Shown piece after piece: positions 5,047-13,976 of a stretch of DNA of 60,129 nt. A model generated the notes under the pieces. It did not search any database. It had not been told where the DNA came from and saw only the letters and a program-made list of their open reading frames with translations. Every line of letters begins with the position of its first letter. Positions within the stretch are counted from its first letter, which is position 1. The stretch comes from an uncultured Candidatus Saccharibacteria bacterium. GTDB lineage: Bacteria; Patescibacteriota; Minisyncoccia; Sungbacterales; HO2-52-23. Location of the stretch: the NCBI GenBank assembly GCA_964361495.1, contig CAYIAH010000003.1, forward strand, positions 1 through 60,129, written 5' to 3'. The position numbers were made by a program, and so were the translations under genes.

Positions 5047-6092
5047 CGAGAAAATGAAGCATAGTGCGCCCGGTTGAGAATCTGCATCACCTCAAGGCCG
5101 CGTTCGAATGAGAGCGGCGAATCATGCGGCGGCATTTCTCCCGCAAGCATTTTTTGATAATGCGCGGTCTCGCGAAAAAAATCATCCGGCCGTTTTTTGA
5201 CAAAGACGCGCTCAACCAATTCTTTTCCTTCCGTCTGATACCGGACAAGGTCGCCTTCCGGCGCGCCGTTACAGTGCCATTCAATAAAACCGCACTCGCC
5301 CTGAAGACGCGCCCATTTTCTTACCGGATACGTGATTACATCCTGCACCACGCGGCCCGCGCCGCCGCGCTCGGCCTTCAGAAGAAATGCGGCGAGGCGA
5401 TCATACTCGCCCCCGCGCTCTTCCTGCATGTCAAAAAGAGATTTCGCGGTCGTCACACTTCCCCATCCGAGCGCGCGCGCAAAAAAGAGCCACAGGTGCA
5501 GCGCGTGCGAATGCTCTCCTCCCGCGCCGCCGCCGCGCCGCCAGTATCCGAGGTATGAATCCCACGGACCCGCAAGCCACGGATGCGCCGAAAAAATCCC
5601 CCGCCAATGTTCCCGAAATTCAACATCCATTGTAAGAATTTTTCCGAACATTCCCTCACGCGCCAGCGCCGCGACCGCTTCAACGCTTTCCGCGATCCCA
5701 TGATCGTACCCGACGGTCACGATCGTCTCGCCGAATCTCTGGCGCGCGCTTATAAACTCGCTCACTCCCGCGAGATCCGGTGTGCATAACGGCTTCTCAA
5801 TGTGAAGCAGACGCGGCCGGTCCTCAAGCAAAGACGCGAGCGCGAGCTTCATGTGAGAATCGGGCGGGGTGCCAATTACGACCACGTCAAAACCCCCTTT
5901 CGGTTCTTTTCCTGTTTCAAAAAGCTGGATCGCGGGATCCCATGCGCCGTAACGAGCGGGATAAATATCGTTCCGCATACGCTCGAGCGAACGCGGATCG
6001 TTATCAACCACCGCGACGTCCCATCCCATGCGGCGACTTGCCTGCGCCATATGATTTCCGATGGATCCCGCGCCTATGATTTTTACCTTCAT
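5043..6092 (-). CDS. Gfo/Idh/MocA-family NAD(P)-dependent oxidoreductase
   Basis: N-terminal Rossmann KVKIIGAGSIGNHMA and the EKP motif (LLHIEKPLC). ATGA overlaps at both ends. Confidence 0.65.
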   Translation of the reverse strand: MKVKIIGAGSIGNHMAQASRRMGWDVAVVDNDPRSLERMRNDIYPARYGAWDPAIQLFETGKEPKGGFDVVVIGTPPDSHMKLALASLLEDRPRLLHIEKPLCTPDLAGVSEFISARQRFGETIVTVGYDHGIAESVEAVAALAREGMFGKILTMDVEFREHWRGIFSAHPWLAGPWDSYLGYWRRGGGAGGEHSHALHLWLFFARALGWGSVTTAKSLFDMQEERGGEYDRLAAFLLKAERGGAGRVVQDVITYPVRKWARLQGECGFIEWHCNGAPEGDLVRYQTEGKELVERVFVKKRPDDFFRETAHYQKMLAGEMPPHDSPLSFERGLEVMQILNRAHYASFSR

Positions 6093-6727
6093 ACATTTTT
6101 TGCGACAAGCGGCCCAAGTTCCGCGATCGCGCGTATTAAAGGAAATCTTTTATTCTTCCACTGATTAAAATCGTTCGCCACGCCGACGAATGGACAGCCG
6201 CAGCGCTCCGCCGCTTCAATATCTCCTTCGCCGTCCCCCACCATCATCACTTCGGCGGAATCTCGTCCTTCCGCCGCAATAATGTTTTTTAGATTTTCAG
6301 TTTTCTCCGGCGGCCATCCATATATACGTTTAAAAAAACTGTGGATCCCCAGATGCGATATGGTTTTCTCAAGCGCCGCCTGCGGCGTCATGGAATTGAC
6401 GTAGAGCGCATAGCTTCTGCCGAGTTCCGCGAGCGCCTCACGCGTTCCGGGAATCATTCCATACTCGGCAATGCCTCGCTGCACCGCGTCGTCAAAACGC
6501 TTCGCGTACTCATCCGTGAGCGCCGCAACTTCTTCGGCATTCTTTCCGCTCCGCACAAAAATATCTCGCAGGATATCAAATCGCGTTCCCTGAGTGCGAG
6601 ACTCAACCTCACGGACAATGTCCTCTTTCACGCCGCTTCCCTCAAAGATCGAAAGGAGCGATTCCTGCTTCAGACGATTGGAATCAACGATCACGCCGTC
6701 AAAATCAAAGACAATCACCCGGATCAT
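6089..6727 (-). CDS. HAD-superfamily phosphatase
   Basis: VFDFDGVIVDS (DxDG motif I) and a late MVGDGEGD motif. Translationally coupled to neuB. Confidence 0.8.
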   Translation of the reverse strand: MIRVIVFDFDGVIVDSNRLKQESLLSIFEGSGVKEDIVREVESRTQGTRFDILRDIFVRSGKNAEEVAALTDEYAKRFDDAVQRGIAEYGMIPGTREALAELGRSYALYVNSMTPQAALEKTISHLGIHSFFKRIYGWPPEKTENLKNIIAAEGRDSAEVMMVGDGEGDIEAAERCGCPFVGVANDFNQWKNKRFPLIRAIAELGPLVAKNV

Positions 6728-8277
6728 ACCGCGTCAACGAATTCGTCAAACTGATGCCGTCCCCAATTGCGCAAATAGGTTTTTCGCTCGTCGCGGCCCA
6801 TTCGCGCAATCGCACGGTCAACGTAAAACGAATCGTTGCTCACATTTGCGGTTGATATCTCCTCAAAAATCGCGCCCGTTCTCGTGCCGAATCCGTGCCA
6901 CACTCCCTGCGGAACCCACAGCGTATCCCCGGGAACGAGCACCTTTCGGCGCCCCTCAATTTCAACTTCAAGTTCCCCGGTAAGCATGCAGAACGTCTCG
7001 TCCTTTTTCTTGTGGTAATGCACCGGATTCCACTGGCCCGCGAGCTGGATAATAAGCTTGCGCGCATATTCGCGGTTCACGCACTCAATGATGACGCAAC
7101 CGGTATCGCCGAATTGCTCAAGCCCATAGTGATGGGAAAGCTCCACCGAAAAATCATGCCCCAAGGGAATACGCGCCTCGTTGAGCATTCCCTTCACCGC
7201 GTGCACCGCGGAGTAGATCACATCTTTCTTCACATTTCGCCCGCGCTTCGCGACCTCGCCCGCGATCGCCTCCTGCGGCGCGTAGGCGCGATCGGCCACA
7301 AGGCCCTCATGCCAATCGCCGCTTGAGAGCTGTCCCGCGCCCCACGGCATCGCAAAGAATACGTCGGCGCGTTCAATCACCGCACCCGGACGCACTTCTT
7401 TTCGTGCAAAGACGCCTCGTTTGAGCGAGGCGAGATCGCTTTTTTCCTTCTCGCTGATCTCGCGCTCGCCTTCTCCCCCGCACGCATCAACCGCCTCTTG
7501 GTACGCGCTCACCCACGCATCAATCTGTTCGGGGGTCGCAGAATACGCATTGAGCGTGATCGTGTCGGTCGCGACACCGACATGTTTTTCAAAAATTCGG
7601 GCGCCCTTTGCGTATGCGATGCGCACCGCATTAATGTTTGAAGGATCTTCGTGGGTTGAAAAACCGATCGTGATCCCCGGATACCGGATGCGCATTACGA
7701 CGATCTGATTGAGATGCAGAATGCTGTTTGGCGCGGGATAGACCGCGACACAATGCATGAGCGCGAAGTGCACGCCGCGGTGCTGAAAAAAGCTTACAAT
7801 CTTGTCGATCCGCTTGAGCGTGAGTCCGCCCGTGGAACAAATCACGGGCTTCCCGGTTTCCGCGACGCGTTCAAGCAGAGGCCAATCTTCCGCGGAGCAA
7901 CTTCCTATTTTAACCACCTCAATCCCGAGCCGTTCAATCTTGTCAACCGACGCCTCGTCGAACGGCGTGGCGATGGTGACGAGATTTTTTCGTTTTGTCT
8001 CCTCCACAAGCGTCCTGAATTCTTCTTCCGAAAGACGCGTTGAGAGAAATCGGGGAATGTGCTTATTGTCTTTACTCTCATGGTGGGCGGGATGGATAAA
8101 CGTTTCCAGCTCCCTGAATTGAAGCTTGATCGCTCCGCGCACACCGTGGCGTCCCGCGATGTCGGCCATCGCGCGAATAATGCGAAGCCCGTGCTCAACC
8201 GATCCCTGATGGTTATTCGCCATCTCGAATATAAAAAGATTTTTGAAATCAAATTTTTGCGGCGGGAACGTATTCAT
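6724..8277 (-). CDS. neuB: Nonulosonate (N-acetylneuraminate-type) synthase NeuB fused to a SAF domain and a C-terminal D-lyxose/mannose-isomerase-like cupin
   Basis: NeuB-like FIFEMANNHQGS, KIGSCS and FSTHE motifs. SAF-like KRGVFARKEVRPGAVI. C-terminal cupin with WNPVHYHKKKDETF...PGDTLWVPQGVWHGF...FEEISTANVSNDSFY. Confidence 0.8.
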   Translation of the reverse strand: MNTFPPQKFDFKNLFIFEMANNHQGSVEHGLRIIRAMADIAGRHGVRGAIKLQFRELETFIHPAHHESKDNKHIPRFLSTRLSEEEFRTLVEETKRKNLVTIATPFDEASVDKIERLGIEVVKIGSCSAEDWPLLERVAETGKPVICSTGGLTLKRIDKIVSFFQHRGVHFALMHCVAVYPAPNSILHLNQIVVMRIRYPGITIGFSTHEDPSNINAVRIAYAKGARIFEKHVGVATDTITLNAYSATPEQIDAWVSAYQEAVDACGGEGEREISEKEKSDLASLKRGVFARKEVRPGAVIERADVFFAMPWGAGQLSSGDWHEGLVADRAYAPQEAIAGEVAKRGRNVKKDVIYSAVHAVKGMLNEARIPLGHDFSVELSHHYGLEQFGDTGCVIIECVNREYARKLIIQLAGQWNPVHYHKKKDETFCMLTGELEVEIEGRRKVLVPGDTLWVPQGVWHGFGTRTGAIFEEISTANVSNDSFYVDRAIARMGRDERKTYLRNWGRHQFDEFVDAV

Positions 8278-8829: not shown

Positions 8830-9564
8830 CTATGCCGCGCCATTTTCGATCCTTTTTTTCATAAACCATTCCGCGATTTCAAAGTCAAGACCGTGATCAA
8901 TGTTCACCGAATCCTCAGGCGTCATAAAAAAATACACGAGCTTCCTGCCTGAGGTTGACTTTAGTTCGCGGATCGTCCGCGTGCGCATCACATCCATAGC
9001 GCCTGTGTGGATATATGCCTTCGGGAAGAGCTGGCGGGGAAGATTATGCGGTTCGTCAAAACCAGTGAAGGACGTGGGCAAAAACGGTTCCAGAAATCGC
9101 CCGTCGGCAGAACTGATCCGCCACAATTTATAGGGATGTTTCGGAGCCTCGCAAATCGGCCGCGCGGCATCCGCATCGGGATTCCCGAAGAGCGTCTCAA
9201 TGCCCTCGTCAATATGCGCGGCGGTGCGGAGCGGCGAGGTCGGCGGAAGCCGGAGCACCATCTCGGGTTCATACCCCTCGCGCATTTTCAGCCAGTCAAG
9301 CGCGTGCAGCAAAAATTCCACATCAGTGGAAAGATCGTCCGAAATTTCTGCCGGCCGCAAAAACGGCACCTCGGCGCCGTGCGCCCGTGCAACCGCCGCG
9401 ATCTCCGGATCATCCGTGGATACGATCGTCCGGGTAAGACGCCTTGATTGCTTCGCCGCGTCAATGGTCCACGCAATCAAAGGCCTGCCGCACAGCAGTT
9501 TTATATTTTTTCGCGGTATGCTTTTTGACCCCCCACGCGCGGGGATAATACCCAGAATGCCCAT
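8830..9564 (-). CDS. neuA: Acylneuraminate/nonulosonate cytidylyltransferase, copy 2
   Basis: IIPARGGSKSIPRKNIK motif. First gene of the minus-strand operon that runs from 9564 to 93. Confidence 0.8.
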   Translation of the reverse strand: MGILGIIPARGGSKSIPRKNIKLLCGRPLIAWTIDAAKQSRRLTRTIVSTDDPEIAAVARAHGAEVPFLRPAEISDDLSTDVEFLLHALDWLKMREGYEPEMVLRLPPTSPLRTAAHIDEGIETLFGNPDADAARPICEAPKHPYKLWRISSADGRFLEPFLPTSFTGFDEPHNLPRQLFPKAYIHTGAMDVMRTRTIRELKSTSGRKLVYFFMTPEDSVNIDHGLDFEIAEWFMKKRIENGAA

Positions 9565-9637
9565 TAGTCTTTATTTCTACGGTATATAAAACGAGCAGAC
9601 CTTACAAATTGTTTTAATAATGATGAGTGATGCAACG

Positions 9638-9677
9638 TTACATCAAATTTTAAACGATCGTTAGAAATTTGATGTAA
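9638..9677. promoter_or_regulatory. Perfect palindrome TTACATCAAATTT-N14-AAATTTGATGTAA (candidate operator, site 1)
   Basis: Read directly from the sequence. It lies in the AT-rich spacer between the regulator stop (9708) and the start of the nonulosonate operon (9564). Confidence 0.6.
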
Positions 9678-9707
9678 TTGCGACTCAAACTACACCGCTT
9701 CGCTCCG

Positions 9708-10286
9708 CTAGATCAGCCGGAAAAATTTTCGTGCTGCCCCCTCACATTTTCCCAAATCCTTGGTAACAAAATAATGAACATACCGTTCAACTTCCCAAAA
9801 TGAAGCGAGCGATTCAATTTCTTCATGACAATCGTATGGATACACAAATACACTTTTCTGGAAGGCAAAACATCCAAGAATTTTAAGATGCTGCTGGAAT
9901 GCGCGCCGGCCCCCTCCGCTTCGTTCCGGAATATCAAAAAGAATTACTCTCCATTTTTTATCCCATACTCCTTCGGGTAATTCAAAATTGTCCAATTCGA
10001 ATTGTCGTACATATTTTTTTCCGCTTTCAGTCACATAAAGATACATCTTGTTTCCGCGCTCCCTGTATTCAATAAGACGGCGCCGATGTAGCGCGCGAAG
10101 CGCTCGTTGAATTCTATCCCGTTCATGATTACTCCGTCTTCCGCCGCCAAGAAATGGCTTCAATACTTTCAGTGCATTTGGTGCCATTAATGCCATCGCA
10201 AGAGCCGTTCCGGTGCCAAGCACAATCAAAATTGCTTTGGTAAGCGTCCTGACGTGGAGATAATTTTTTATTTCATGAAGTGCCAT
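9708..10286 (-). CDS. Membrane-anchored PaaX-like regulator (wHTH plus Cas2-like ferredoxin-fold domain)
   Basis: The N-terminal hydrophobic segment AILIVLGTGTALAMALMAP is followed by a wHTH-like RALRALHRRRLIEYRERGNKMYLYVTESGKKY. Next comes WRVILFDIPERSGGGRRAFQQHLKILGCFAFQKSVFVYPYD, which matches the PaaX/Cas2-fold signature. The gene is visibly more AT-rich than its neighbours. Confidence 0.6.
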   Translation of the reverse strand: MALHEIKNYLHVRTLTKAILIVLGTGTALAMALMAPNALKVLKPFLGGGRRSNHERDRIQRALRALHRRRLIEYRERGNKMYLYVTESGKKYVRQFELDNFELPEGVWDKKWRVILFDIPERSGGGRRAFQQHLKILGCFAFQKSVFVYPYDCHEEIESLASFWEVERYVHYFVTKDLGKCEGAARKFFRLI

Positions 10287-10299
10287 ACATCCAGTAAGT

Positions 10300-10338
10300 T
10301 TACATCAAATTTATTCCTATCGTCAAAAATTTGATGTA
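10300..10338. promoter_or_regulatory. Palindrome TTACATCAAATTT-N14-AAATTTGATGTA (candidate operator, site 2)
   Basis: Same arms and same 14-nt spacer length as site 1. It lies in the divergent regulator/tkt intergenic region. It overlaps a candidate minus-strand promoter TTGACG-N18-TAAACT (plus-strand 10297-10326). Confidence 0.6.
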
Positions 10339-10359
10339 CATATAGATGTAAAATCACTC

Positions 10360-10387
10360 TTGACTAAATCCTCTCATCAAGTACTCT
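10360..10387 (+). promoter_or_regulatory. Candidate sigma70-like promoter for tkt (TTGACT-N16-TACTCT)
   Basis: TTGACT at 10360-10365 and TACTCT at 10382-10387, only about 14 nt before the ATG at 10402. No obvious Shine-Dalgarno sequence, so the leader would be very short. Confidence 0.3.
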
Positions 10388-10401
10388 GAAAGTGCATCGC
10401 A

Positions 10402-12282
10402 ATGAATCCATCATCTCCAATCTATCTTCGCAATCTCGCGCGGCTTGTGCGGTATTATATTCTCCTCTCCACCACCGAGGCCGGATCAGGGCATCCGACG
10501 TCATCCCTCTCCGCCGCCGACCTTATGACCATCCTCGTCTTCGGAGGATTTTTTCATTTTGATCCCGCAAATCCGGAGAACCCTGCAAACGACCGGCTCA
10601 TTTTTTCAAAAGGACATGCTTCTCCGCTCCTTTATGCCCTCTGGGCCGCTGCTGGAAAAATAACCGAAGAGGAATTAAAAACTCTTCGCATGTTCGGATC
10701 GCGACTCGAAGGGCATCCCGCAATGACATTCCCCTATACCGAAGCGGCAACCGGCTCGCTCGGACAAGGACTTTCCATAGGCGTCGGCATGGCGCTCAAC
10801 GCGAAGTATCTGGACAAAATTCCTTATCGAACGTTCGTGCTCTTGGGCGACAGCGAAATCGCCGAGGGATCGGTATGGGAAGCAATGCAGTGCGCGGCGC
10901 ATTATAAATTGAATAATCTCGCAGGAATTCTTGATGTGAATCGCCTTGGCCAGCGGGGAGAAACCATGCACGGCCACGACCTTGAAGCATACGAGAAAAA
11001 GGTGATCGCATTCGGATGGAATGCGATCATGATTGACGGACACTCGCATGACGAGATCGCCCGCGCCTATGAACACGCGCTCACGGCAACGGAAAAACCA
11101 GTAATGATCATTGCGCGCACTCTCAAAGGAAAGGGGATTTCATTTCTTGAAGATCAGGACGGGTGGCACGGAAAAGCGCTTTCGCGCGACCAATTTCAAA
11201 ATGCACTCAAAGAACTGGAGGAGGTTGACCGGACAATTCGGGGGGAAATTGCACCGCCGCCCGCATATTCATCTTCTTCCAATTTGGAAACTCGATCCCC
11301 GGGTAACGTCCCCGCACCTTCCCCGACACAAGAACTTCCGCCTCCGGTCTATCCGATCGAGACGCCGGTCGCCACCAGAAAAGCCTACGGCAACGCGCTC
11401 GCGAGGATTTCTCCCGCATTTCCCGATATCGTTGTGCTTGATGCGGAAGTCGGCAATTCAACATTCGCCGAGATCTTCAAAAAAGCGCATCCGGAACGGT
11501 TTTTTGAAATGTATATCGCGGAACAAAATATGGCGGGCGCCGCCCTCGGTATGTCGCGCCGCGGCAAAATTCCTTTTTGTTCCACATTCGCGGCGTTTTT
11601 CACCCGCGCCTTCGATCAAATCAGAATGAGTCAGTATTCAGATGCGAATATCAAATTCACTGGTTCCCATGCGGGCGTTTCCATCGGCGAGGACGGTCCA
11701 TCCCAAATGGGACTTGAAGACCTCGCGATGTTCAGAACACTCCGCGACGGTGTCGTCCTCTATCCTTCTGATGCAATCTCAACAGAGCGTCTTGTTGAAG
11801 AAGCGGCGCAATCACGCGGCATTGTGTACATTCGCACCACCCGAAAAGACACGCCGATTCTTTACGACGCGGGCGAGAAATTTCCCATTGGCGGGAGCAA
11901 AACCATCCGTTCAAACAATCATGATATCGCGACCATTGTGGCCGCAGGCATCACCCTTCACGAGGCGCTCGCCGCGCATGAATCGTTACAAAAAGAGAGA
12001 ATCTCAATTCGCGTCATTGATTGCTACAGCATCAAACCCCTTGACACTGCAACGCTTCTCAAAGCCGCACAAGAAACACACACGCTTATCACTGTTGAAG
12101 ATCACTATCCCGAAGGCGGACTTGGCGAAGCCGTCGCGGCGGCGCTCGCGAATTCCGGCGCCTCCATGCATTCGCTTGCAGTCCGGCGCCGGCCGAAAAG
12201 CGGAGAGCCGAACGAGCTTCTCGACTATGAAGAAATTTCAAAAGACGCGATCATCCGTGCCATACACAGGATACTGCAATAA
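10402..12282 (+). CDS. tkt: Transketolase (fused split-type N and C halves)
   Basis: GSGHPTSSLSAADLM and GSLGQGLS motifs in the N-terminal half, and a Pyr/C-terminal half with EQNM. A Pro/Ser-rich linker (nt 11251-11367) joins the halves. Confidence 0.9.
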   Translation: MNPSSPIYLRNLARLVRYYILLSTTEAGSGHPTSSLSAADLMTILVFGGFFHFDPANPENPANDRLIFSKGHASPLLYALWAAAGKITEEELKTLRMFGSRLEGHPAMTFPYTEAATGSLGQGLSIGVGMALNAKYLDKIPYRTFVLLGDSEIAEGSVWEAMQCAAHYKLNNLAGILDVNRLGQRGETMHGHDLEAYEKKVIAFGWNAIMIDGHSHDEIARAYEHALTATEKPVMIIARTLKGKGISFLEDQDGWHGKALSRDQFQNALKELEEVDRTIRGEIAPPPAYSSSSNLETRSPGNVPAPSPTQELPPPVYPIETPVATRKAYGNALARISPAFPDIVVLDAEVGNSTFAEIFKKAHPERFFEMYIAEQNMAGAALGMSRRGKIPFCSTFAAFFTRAFDQIRMSQYSDANIKFTGSHAGVSIGEDGPSQMGLEDLAMFRTLRDGVVLYPSDAISTERLVEEAAQSRGIVYIRTTRKDTPILYDAGEKFPIGGSKTIRSNNHDIATIVAAGITLHEALAAHESLQKERISIRVIDCYSIKPLDTATLLKAAQETHTLITVEDHYPEGGLGEAVAAALANSGASMHSLAVRRRPKSGEPNELLDYEEISKDAIIRAIHRILQ

Positions 12283-13077
12283 TCAATGAGACGCTTTTTT
12301 GAAATGATACACCCCGATAGCGCCCCCGTAATCCGTATCGCGCTCGAAAGGAACCGCATGCCGATTAAGCCACTCCATGAATAGTTTAATCTTTTTCTCG
12401 TCAATGCCGAGTTTTGAATCGCGGGCAACATTCGGGAGCCGGCGGCTAAGGTCATCAATCATCTTTTTTCCATGCGCCCATTCGTGATCCACGGTTTTCC
12501 ATTCAAGTTCCATTTTGAGAATTTTTCCCCACTCCATAAAATTGAACGGCGTGAGATAATGGAGATCCGCAAGAGTAATTCGCGCATCGAATAAGCACCG
12601 AAGTGCGGTCAAAATATATCCGCGGGGATTGAGCCAGTTCGGACACGAAACGATAAGCGATCCCCCCGGTTTCAAAAGTTCTTTGAAACGCCGGAGGATC
12701 GCAAGCGGATCATCCATGTGCTCAAGCGTCCCGAGGCAGACCACGGCATCAAACTTTCCGCGCACGTTTTTAATCTCTGTTTTCTGAAATAAAAGATTCG
12801 GGCATTGATGGGCGCTCTTCGCGACCGCGATCGCGTCGGAAGAATAATCAATGCCGATCACTCTTTTCGCGCCGCGTTCCGCAATTAAGTACGCGAGTTC
12901 TCCGGTTCCGCATCCCGCGTCAAGTACCATTTTTCCCTTCCATGAAGGAATGGCTTTTAATACCTCAATACGGTCATAGGCAAGATCGCCCTTTGCAAAA
13001 AGGAGTTTCGTGTAATGCGTGGATTCTCCGCGCCGGTAAATGGAATTGTAAATCGCCTCAAGATCTTTATTGTGCAT
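12283..13077 (-). CDS. Class I SAM-dependent methyltransferase
   Basis: VLDAGCGTGELAY motif. Its stop codon abuts the convergent tkt stop with no spacer. Confidence 0.8.
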   Translation of the reverse strand: MHNKDLEAIYNSIYRRGESTHYTKLLFAKGDLAYDRIEVLKAIPSWKGKMVLDAGCGTGELAYLIAERGAKRVIGIDYSSDAIAVAKSAHQCPNLLFQKTEIKNVRGKFDAVVCLGTLEHMDDPLAILRRFKELLKPGGSLIVSCPNWLNPRGYILTALRCLFDARITLADLHYLTPFNFMEWGKILKMELEWKTVDHEWAHGKKMIDDLSRRLPNVARDSKLGIDEKKIKLFMEWLNRHAVPFERDTDYGGAIGVYHFKKASH

Positions 13078-13084
13078 AACGGAA

Positions 13085-13245
13085 TAGACCTGTCGCGTAA
13101 TAATTTTCGTAGCGAAATTTTCAGATTTTGAGCGAGGCGAAGCAAAAATTTTGAAGCATATACAGAGTATCTGTTGAAAAATTTTTGCAAAGCCGCAGCC
13201 AAAATATGGAAATTGCAGCAGAAAGATTATTACGCAACAGGTCTA
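13085..13245. repeat. 20-bp inverted repeat pair (1 mismatch) enclosing a 121-bp AT-rich core
   Basis: TAGACCTGTCGCGTAATAAT at 13085-13104 pairs with ATTATTACGCAACAGGTCTA at 13226-13245. The pair fills the rmlA/methyltransferase intergenic spacer. Confidence 0.7.
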
Positions 13246-13250
13246 CTGTA

Positions 13251-13976
13251 TTACCTCTCGGATGCGCTTCGCTTCGCGGCCCATATGGACGTTCCAAGAA
13301 GCGTCGAAAATGTCCCCGCGTCAGACCAAAATCCTTTTATAAATTCAAAGGTGTAGTCGCCTTTTCTGATATATTCGTTCACGGCATCAACAATTTCAAG
13401 TTCCCCCCGCGCCGAGGGGTGCAGTGTTCGTATAATATCAAAGATGCGGTGATCAAAAAGATAGAATCCGACATCTGCATAGGGGAATCTGGGCCTTTTT
13501 GACTTCTCAATAATTTTGAGAATCCGGGTACGCGTACGATTAAACACCGGCGTGCCGAAGCGGCGCGGATCCGCAACTTTTTTTAAAAAAATGGCGGTGC
13601 CGCTTCTGAATTTCCGAACCGCGTTCTTAAAATTCTGTTCAAAGATATTATCGCCGAGAATCATGGCAACCGATCCCCCATCCGCAAAATCTTCCGCACA
13701 GCTCAACGCATCGGCAATGCCGCCGTTATCTTTATCCTGCAACGCATAAGAAAGTTTAACGCCGTGCTCCTTTCCCGATCCCAAAAAATTCATAAAATGC
13801 CCCGCATGTTCTTTTCCGCATACAATCATAATTTCTTTAATCCCCGAACGACGCAAAGTTTCCAATGGATATAAAATCATCGGTTTGTCGTACAAAGGCA
13901 GAAGATGCTTATTCGTAATTCTCGTCAACGGACGAAGACGCGTCCCGAGTCCGCCGGCAGTAATGACTCCTTTCAT
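13251..13976 (-). CDS. rmlA: Glucose-1-phosphate thymidylyltransferase (short RmlA type)
   Basis: GGLGTRLRPLTRITNKHLLPLYDKPMILYPL. ATGA-coupled to rmlB. Confidence 0.8.
   Translation of the reverse strand: MKGVITAGGLGTRLRPLTRITNKHLLPLYDKPMILYPLETLRRSGIKEIMIVCGKEHAGHFMNFLGSGKEHGVKLSYALQDKDNGGIADALSCAEDFADGGSVAMILGDNIFEQNFKNAVRKFRSGTAIFLKKVADPRRFGTPVFNRTRTRILKIIEKSKRPRFPYADVGFYLFDHRIFDIIRTLHPSARGELEIVDAVNEYIRKGDYTFEFIKGFWSDAGTFSTLLGTSIWAAKRSASER

Follow-up and report, generated by a model that had tools for sequence, protein, structure and literature searches.

What is the function of two near-identical palindromes that bracket a single regulator gene amid genes of glycan synthesis? The question is raised by the stretch of DNA analysed here, 60,129 nucleotides of contig CAYIAH010000003.1 from an uncultured Candidatus Saccharibacteria bacterium (hereafter the window), in which the palindromes flank the gene of a small PaaX-like protein, here called mini-PaaX, located between the gene tkt and a nonulosonate operon. 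The first-pass annotation interpreted the palindromes as an operator pair through which one regulator controls its own gene, tkt and the sialic-like operon. Our comparative evidence supports the first part of this proposal, i.e. a cognate pair in an autoregulatory layout, and gives no support to the control of tkt and the nonulosonate operon. We consider it probable, though by no means certain, that the palindromes are the cognate operators of the protein encoded between them, that gene and sites together form a self-contained autoregulatory unit and that units of this kind characterise a very large protein family of Patescibacteria. The elements in question are as follows:

9638-9677: site 1, the downstream palindrome, TTACATCAAATTT-TAAACGATCGTTAG-AAATTTGATGTAA, perfect 13-N14-13
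9708-10286, minus strand: the mini-PaaX gene, 192 aa, whose product has a hydrophobic N-terminus followed by a predicted winged helix and the Cas2-like domain PaaX_M
10300-10339: site 2, the upstream palindrome, TTACATCAAATTT-ATTCCTATCGTCAA-AAATTTGATGTAC, 13-N14-13 with 12 of 13 arm positions paired

The bracketing of the regulator gene by a pair of palindromes is real, as chance predicts none: no matching pair appeared in 100 dinucleotide-preserving shuffles of the window, even with three mismatches allowed. Site 1 has its dyad between 9657 and 9658 within the core CGATCG (9655-9660), and its spacer is itself palindromic over AACGATCGTT, resulting in 18 of 20 symmetric positions. Its end is separated from the next gene start by 74 nt, which places it upstream of the nonulosonate operon as annotated; the annotation omits that it is equally located downstream of the regulator, starting 30 nt past its stop codon (9708). 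Site 2 shares arms and spacer length with site 1, as described before, with its end at 10339 and the last base as the sole arm mismatch. Its dyad lies between 10319 and 10320, 33 nt ahead of the regulator ATG and 662 bp from the dyad of site 1, and its core reads CTATCG on the plus strand, i.e. CGATAG in gene orientation. The spacer cores ACGATCG and TATCGTC and the 115-bp divergent spacer separating the regulator gene from tkt were likewise found as annotated; the spacers of the two sites differ from each other. Searching with the 13-mer half-site and at most two mismatches returns the four arms and two other matches in the window (chance expectation 2.55), and dyads scoring at least 15/19 number three in the 60 kb, two of which are sites 1 and 2. 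The third-strongest dyad (5965-6004, ATATCGTTCCGCATACGCTCGAGCGAACGCGGATCGTTAT, 15/19, centred on CTCGAG) falls within coding sequence, covering the 3' end of a HAD-hydrolase gene and the start of an oxidoreductase gene, and is probably a product of chance.

We compared the DNA around homologues, including 80 further metagenome loci, resulting in a set of 72 distinct proteins with 31-74% identity; further sites were sought within a reach of about ±6 kb per relative and in the 60 kb of the window. The bracket is present in every close relative fetched, whatever its neighbours, and across the 72 distinct relatives sites and regulator are almost always co-conserved. A palindrome of the C-N-A-T-N-G type ranks first among the dyads of 59/72 upstream and 66/72 downstream flanks, and does so on both sides of the gene in 53 loci. 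Its score exceeds the 99th percentile of background windows (15/20) in 28/71 upstream and 47/71 downstream flanks, strong dyads being rare elsewhere in the loci. The palindromes are positioned tight against both ends of the open reading frame (ORF; -3 to ~100 nt), with the dyads at medians of 43 nt ahead of the ATG and 41.5 nt past the stop codon and 658 bp apart. Relatives at different distances have the following contexts and arms:

L001 (74% identity): tkt, the gene and a cytidylyltransferase-NeuB operon, like the window; arms TTACATAAAATTT
L003, L005 and L007 (62-63%): ftsA-ftsZ, the gene and a class II-type ribonucleotide reductase gene; arms TTACCAAAAAT
L010 (63%): ftsA-ftsZ context as in L003, L005 and L007; arms TACGTAAAAT and CTACATAAAATTT
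L011 (55%): SMC, the gene and a convergent histidine kinase gene; arms TTACATAAA
L009 (39%): the gene following a run of small housekeeping genes (NUDIX, SET, HAD); arms ATGTTTCATTC around CGCTATAGCG

Changes in the arms are concerted at all four half-sites, from TTACATCAAATTT in the window to TTACATAAAATTT in L001 and TTACCAAAAAT in L003, L005 and L007; the C-to-A change distinguishing the window from L001 is found in each of the four, and both palindromes form conserved islands in window-L001 alignments. The palindromes co-occur and co-vary with the gene. No conserved partner gene was found among 202 neighbour proteins of the relatives, which fall into 160 clusters (the biggest with five members) and include FtsZ, class II-type ribonucleotide reductase, SMC and tRNA synthetases. 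The upstream neighbour is co-directional in 46 loci and divergent in 14, the downstream neighbour co-directional in 31 of 58 loci and convergent in 27.

The family comprises 2744 clusters at 50% identity (E <= 1e-3), or 1363 at E <= 1e-10, and nearly all members among those listed have 180-200 aa. The genome encoding mini-PaaX is Candidatus Sungbacteria-like (Patescibacteria); the closest named homologues of the protein are Candidatus Sungbacteria proteins, with remoter ones in Terrybacteria, Giovannonibacteria, Azambacteria, Tagabacteria, Minisyncoccales and the 'Patescibacteria group'; in annotations of metagenome-assembled genomes they are often labelled 'CRISPR-associated endonuclease Cas2' or 'PaaX', though they stand alone. 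A protein identical to mini-PaaX, together with both sites, is present on a 2.2-kb groundwater metagenome contig (L059; ERZ1292623, Hainich well H51), which likely points to a groundwater habitat for the window's organism.

The sites are PaaX-like in size and show a block-wise anatomy. Dyad symmetry amounts to 0.81-1.00 at positions ±1-4, dips to 0.53-0.79 at ±5-8, is 0.75-0.95 at ±9-17 (0.83-0.95 at ±10-17) and ~0.7 at ±18-19, and reaches the background of ~0.25 beyond ±20. Between loci, conservation is restricted to the core C, A, T and G (0.91-1.0), with positions ±8-11 leaning weakly towards A/T. Most cores read CGATCG, CTATAG or one of the hybrids CGATAG/CTATCG, and CAATTG was seen a few times. 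The two sites of the same locus have arms that are 77-92% identical to each other at about ±10-17. The arms are lineage-specific and shared by a locus's two sites, and the C-N-A-T-N-G centre is family-wide. A formal pair count over 61 downstream sites gave 87.4% paired cells compared to 45.7% in shuffled data, 510 cells changed on both sides compared to 198, and a covariation score of 0.975 compared to 0.218 for shuffled and 0.15-0.21 for slid partners, all 18 pairs covarying. This pattern, in which a fixed core is followed on each side by a looser linker and a specific outer arm over ~40 bp in total, is the one expected from separate protein contact blocks.

Upstream and downstream sites differ in symmetry and in promoter signals. 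The downstream site is the more symmetric one in 35 loci and the upstream site in nine (Wilcoxon p = 2e-4). Upstream sites contain a -10-like hexamer in their gene-proximal half, in sense orientation in 23/59 compared to 11/59 in antisense; the sense hexamer beats the antisense one in 20 sites, the reverse being true in five, and its commonest start is +6 from the dyad. A corresponding sense bias was not found in the downstream sites. The position of the -10-like box at +6, taken together with a dyad 43 nt from the ATG, suggests a transcription start ~25 nt ahead of the ATG. Two candidate promoter elements of the regulator gene are found in the window:

10308-10315, minus strand: candidate -10 box, AATAAA or TAAATT, inferred, in the gene-proximal half of site 2
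10297-10326, minus strand: alternative candidate promoter TTGACG-N18-TAAACT, proposed in the first-pass annotation

The first of these aligns with TATAAA, TATAGA or TATAAT in relatives. The second does overlap site 2 as proposed and is kept in L001 as TTGACG-N18-TAAGTT; TTGACG is absent from L003, L005 and L007. Both are covered by site 2, and the presence of sense -10 boxes in upstream sites and of candidate promoters under site 2 suggests the upstream site being an operator over the regulator's own promoter.

The protein encoded between the sites has a PaaX-like fold. Its parts are as follows:

10179-10235, minus strand: hydrophobic segment, codons 18-36, AILIVLGTGTALAMALMAP, Kyte-Doolittle 19-residue mean 1.97
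9990-10130, minus strand: winged helix part, codons 53-99, with helix 53-68, strands 72-77 and 80-85 and helix 87-99 in the AlphaFold2 model
9747-9968, minus strand: Cas2-like ferredoxin-fold domain (PaaX_M), codons 107-180, predicted local distance difference test (pLDDT) score >90

PF20803 (PaaX_M) matches mini-PaaX with E = 2.1e-17 and 63.4 bits (Pfam cut-off 24) and is matched by 25 of 25 diverse family members. The PaaX N-terminal Pfam model gave no match in mini-PaaX, nor did PaaX_C, the protein stopping 12 residues beyond the PaaX_M match; TIGR02277 aligns with residues 59-184 (E = 7.7e-8), at 32 bits compared to a cut-off of 264. Searches of the PDB by sequence, with the protein or a profile, returned nothing significant, the best being a weak winged-helix match to TubR (E = 0.33). 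The AlphaFold2 model (mean pLDDT 76; >90 at residues 107-192, ~75 at 53-99, low at 1-50) has the order recognition helix, beta-hairpin wing, helix and ferredoxin-fold domain, of which the first three correspond to codons 53-99 and align with PaaX. Its top Foldseek match in the PDB is E. coli W PaaX (8A39, E = 4.7e-6), aligned over the whole chain, followed by a PaaX-like protein of Jannaschia (3L09), with Cas2 proteins matching one half and winged helices (PadR, ArsR, MarR) the other. The hydrophobic segment lines up with E. coli PaaX at its N-terminal helices (MAFFT), and a 19-residue mean of at least 1.6 is found in 52/71 family members; the segment may represent a membrane helix or, alternatively, helices 1-2 of the winged helix in a very hydrophobic form.

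The Cas2-like domain carries the motifs FDIPE...R...QKSVF, invariant in the family, with D118, R127 and S145 as invariant residues. PF09827 (CRISPR_Cas2) matches 17/25 diverse members weakly, the match of mini-PaaX having an E-value of ~1e-2 compared to 2e-17 for PaaX_M, TIGR01573 (Cas2) scores 16 bits compared to a cut-off of 24.5, and PADLOC reports weak Cas2 and winged-helix matches and nothing more. The window lacks a CRISPR array, its annotated ORFs include neither cas1 nor any other cas gene, and cas1 was also missing from the neighbour-protein clusters whose sequences were inspected.

These features support a model according to which mini-PaaX forms a homodimer joined through the Cas2-like domain, as in PaaX, that would be placed over the conserved C-N-A-T-N-G centre, its two winged helices contacting the outer arms, which vary by lineage, at roughly ±9 to ±19 relative to the dyad. 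The resulting footprint of ~40 bp would equal the span of the E. coli PaaX operator. A dimer of this kind likely binds both sites. As the upstream site would overlie the putative promoter of the regulator gene, whose candidate -10 box falls in the gene-proximal half of the site, binding there would likely repress this promoter by steric hindrance. We are less sure about the downstream site, which may act as an auxiliary operator, either by looping of the ~660 bp together with the upstream site or as a roadblock insulating the gene by blocking polymerases that enter or leave it; for the window, looping over 662 bp is possible.

Several observations weigh against this model. Within the reach of our search the sites were detected only beside their own gene, and no obvious physiological output is seen. 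The invariant D118 and the QKSVF motif, lost in E. coli PaaX, hint that a catalytic role, or one in handling nucleic acids, has been retained. Should the segment at the N-terminus be a true membrane helix, its topology with respect to DNA binding would need explaining. In a partial Mantel test comparing the similarity of arms with that of protein regions, all regions correlate, reflecting phylogeny, and although the recognition helix ranks top (0.23), the test does not single out the winged helix as the reader of the arms. The AT-richness of the gene is not accounted for by this model: its GC content in the window is 0.432 compared to a mean of 0.511 (0.7% of equal-sized windows are as low), and in 40/42 loci the gene exceeds its surroundings in AT content, on average by 6.1 points (p = 4.5e-12), which could derive from low expression, amino-acid composition or horizontal spread. 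At 64 positions, moreover, the two sites of a locus are each symmetric with differing base pairs; single asymmetries number 209, from whose rate ~2 such positions would be expected by independent mutation, so that the 64 are beyond what homodimer binding alone explains. Many sites are also perfect, spacerless 40-50-bp palindromes whose arms measure 19-26 nt. Together with the 64 positions this indicates that something maintains the internal symmetry of each palindrome, which could be selection for hairpin or cruciform formation or, alternatively, quasi-palindrome template-switch correction, a known mutational bias that makes sites symmetric without function.

The first of these possibilities leads to a different interpretation of the locus, which we regard as unlikely: the palindromes would adopt hairpin or cruciform structures, either as RNA or as single-stranded or extruded DNA, that are bound or cut by the Cas2-like domain, the C-NATN-G centre being a closing pair plus tetraloop and the protein acting, e.g., as an RNase-type autoregulator on its own mRNA ends. 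The relatives of the Cas2-like domain are metal-dependent nucleases, and the invariant D118, R127 and S145 as well as the Cas2 hallmarks FDIPE/QKSVF, absent from E. coli PaaX, would suit such an activity. So would the symmetry kept within sites at the 64 positions that differ between them, the many spacerless palindromes and the covariation of all 18 pairs. Site 1 folds into a hairpin at -18.9 to -19.8 kcal/mol (z ~ -5), and the downstream site is positioned like a 3' hairpin. However, the symmetry dip at ±5-8 is incompatible with a continuous stem, and the sense -10 box inside the upstream site implies that this palindrome would only be half transcribed. The palindrome mismatches of the relatives show no excess of G.U on the sense strand, with G.T vs A.C counts of 36 vs 37 upstream and 35 vs 23 downstream and transversions dominating. 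No T-tract is obvious after the downstream sites inspected, and the covariance models of Rfam 15 gave no match at E <= 1 in window positions 9000-11000. The within-site symmetry itself is also explicable by template-switch correction. A broader form of this idea, rather unlikely in our view, is a self-contained nucleic-acid-handling module, instead of or in addition to a transcriptional autoregulator, in which the winged-helix/Cas2-like protein, with the catalytic Asp of Cas2 retained, nicks, cuts or processes its own flanking hairpins or cruciforms. If true, this module would represent either a novel type of cassette, selfish or mobile, or an mRNA device that processes itself, spread among Patescibacteria and evolutionarily intermediate between Cas2 and PaaX.

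Mobility as such, with the palindromes as the ends of a selfish cassette and the encoded protein as its mover or inverter, appears improbable. The gene stands alone, its neighbours fall into many clusters (160 among 202 proteins), its context differs between relatives at 55-62% identity, it is AT-richer than its surroundings in nearly all loci compared (40/42), and near-identical palindromes lie tight against both ORF ends, all of which a cassette would explain. Against this, its GC content nonetheless follows that of its host, four Sungbacteria genomes share the context ftsA-ftsZ, gene and ribonucleotide reductase and the window shares its own with L001, and orientation is constant in these loci, with no sign of inversion. 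We detected no target-site duplication signal (mean longest common substring 4.7 compared to 4.5 in controls), and Pfam scans found no transposase, recombinase, HUH or serine-recombinase domain in the family protein. The differing spacers of the window sites are unfavourable for site-specific recombination. Neither 371 kb of the relatives nor the 60-kb window yielded additional or solitary copies more than ~850 nt from the gene: the locus-specific half-site occurs more than 260 nt from the gene in 4/60 loci, always within ~850 nt. Dispersal like that of repetitive extragenic palindromic (REP) sequences or miniature inverted-repeat transposable elements (MITE), which the first-pass annotation had named as a reason to abandon an operator function, is therefore not observed in the DNA covered.

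The extra copies deserve mention in their own right. Third or fourth palindromes within a few hundred nt of the gene occur in L075, L104, L083 and L134, and L075 has three tandem upstream palindromes with dyads at 82, 208 and 314, i.e. at spacings of 126 and 106 bp. Near position 9372 of L134, ~4 kb from the family gene, a strong palindrome has other arms (GTTGCTATTATAATACGCGATAGCGTATTATAATAGCA) around the same kind of core and may be another regulator's site or a distant target. L068 encodes tandem family paralogues (382-939 and 1113-1706), the second with its own GCGATAGC-centred site pair and the first without a clear pair. The idea that the contig ends at a second copy beside a ribonucleotide reductase gene was rejected, the 920-aa ORF at the end of the window encoding a glycosyltransferase.

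We regard as very improbable that the sites serve mainly to control tkt and the nonulosonate operon, thereby tying the supply of sedoheptulose-7-P to glycan synthesis. The location of site 2 within the divergent tkt-regulator spacer and of site 1 ahead of the first operon gene suggests this reading, L001 as the closest relative has neighbours and sites as in the window, and a protein bound at site 1 could incidentally stop read-through from the regulator gene into the operon. However, the bracket follows the gene and not its neighbours, being retained in relatives with wholly different ones, and in about half of the loci (27/58) the downstream site is situated between genes that converge. The sites are also outside the best promoter candidates of the neighbours: a TTGACT at 10360-10365, conserved in L001 and likely the tkt -35 element, is 20 nt away from site 2 in the window but ~60 nt farther from the palindrome in L001. 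No further sites were found in the 60-kb glycan island, whose annotated genes (about half of the large ORFs, taken from either side of the regulator and from both ends of the window) are glycan and nucleotide-sugar genes plus tkt, with no paa genes. For the annotation of the window this means that the palindromes provide no evidence for a shared regulator of tkt and nonulosonate genes. The identity of the operon's product is a separate matter: the window encodes a NeuB-family synthase (6724-8277, minus strand, 517 aa) fused to a C-terminal cupin domain that scores well below the NeuB and PseI cut-offs, making the product sugar of the 'nonulosonate' operon uncertain. The island also contains an imperfect palindrome of ~165 nt (13085-13245; 79-nt arms, 73% complementary) filling the gap between a methyltransferase gene (12283-13077, minus strand) and a nucleotidyl-transferase gene (13251-13976, minus strand); its minus-strand RNA folds at -61.7 kcal/mol (z = -8.8), and its sequence is unrelated to the 40-bp sites.

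Palindromic, intergenic and hairpin-capable sequences, one of them in the position of a terminator, could conceivably be a generic REP/MITE-like repeat or ordinary intrinsic terminators placed beside the gene by accident. This reading is nearly refuted already and has almost no probability left, as the window holds two copies only in 60 kb where chance predicts none, few strong dyads occur elsewhere in the loci, each protein lineage has its own arms around a family-wide core, the scanner called no intrinsic terminator at either window site, and a scan of a genome-contig collection excluding the window's genome returned the motif only as 46 scattered single matches in unrelated phyla, none of them in Sungbacteria.

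The interest of the putative autoregulatory unit lies in its family-wide scope more than in the single locus of the window. Patescibacteria have tiny genomes and their gene regulation is almost unknown; a family of at least 2,700 clusters at 50% identity, often mislabelled 'Cas2', gains a concrete DNA target open to testing and a probable mode of action. The lineage-specific arms around a fixed core represent a natural library of hundreds of matched protein-operator pairs, which could serve to read the recognition code of winged helices and to build orthogonal repressors. As the family stands between Cas2 and PaaX in sequence, it also bears on how a nuclease fold turned into the dimerisation domain of a repressor.

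Comparison with known systems places the unit closest to PaaX. E. coli PaaX binds TGATTC(N27)GAATCA, spanning 39 bp, and represses its own promoter Px by steric hindrance (PMC9493321). In E. coli PaaX a winged helix is followed by a Cas2-like dimerisation domain, an architecture that is also predicted for mini-PaaX, and both proteins are associated with outer inverted repeats spanning ~40 bp, TGATTC-N27-GAATCA in E. coli and 13-N14-13 for mini-PaaX, a likeness of geometry only. In contrast to E. coli PaaX, mini-PaaX lacks the C-terminal phenylacetyl-CoA-binding domain (192 compared to 316 aa, the last ~120 residues of E. coli PaaX being unmatched), has a strongly hydrophobic N-terminus and keeps FDIPE and QKSVF, which are absent in E. 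coli PaaX. There are no paa genes among the annotated window ORFs and no evident effector. The second site downstream of its own gene is a further difference: around E. coli paaX we found no self-flanking PaaX boxes at up to one mismatch per half-site. In the literature we found no description linking Patescibacteria PaaX-like or Cas2-like proteins to flanking palindromes.

Genes flanked by short palindromes that their own products recognise are known from RAYT/REP, the ends of IS200/IS605 and hin between hixL and hixR. The near-identical palindromes tight on both sides of the mini-PaaX gene resemble these systems, which differ from it in that mini-PaaX has neither an HUH or serine-recombinase domain nor a dispersed repeat family, and shows no orientation variants and no evidence of movement between close relatives. 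With Cas2 and VapD mini-PaaX shares the ferredoxin fold, the beta1 Asp and the QxSVF motif, differing by its fusion to a winged helix, by standing alone and by a PaaX_M match far stronger than that to CRISPR_Cas2.

Looping repressors, i.e. lambda CI at OR/OL, coliphage 186 CI at FL/FR, LacI at O1/O2/O3 and AraC at O2/I1, combine a primary operator over a promoter with an auxiliary one that has the same sequence and lies at a distance of a few hundred bp, and the lambda cI gene is located between its two operator regions. The combination of a putative promoter-side operator with a distant site of the same sequence would give mini-PaaX the same layout, with the differences that its auxiliary site follows just past the stop codon in essentially every member and that no other regulated gene is evident. 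Taken together, the sequence comparisons are best read as pointing to a unit that works like a PaaX-type autorepressor equipped with an auxiliary operator.

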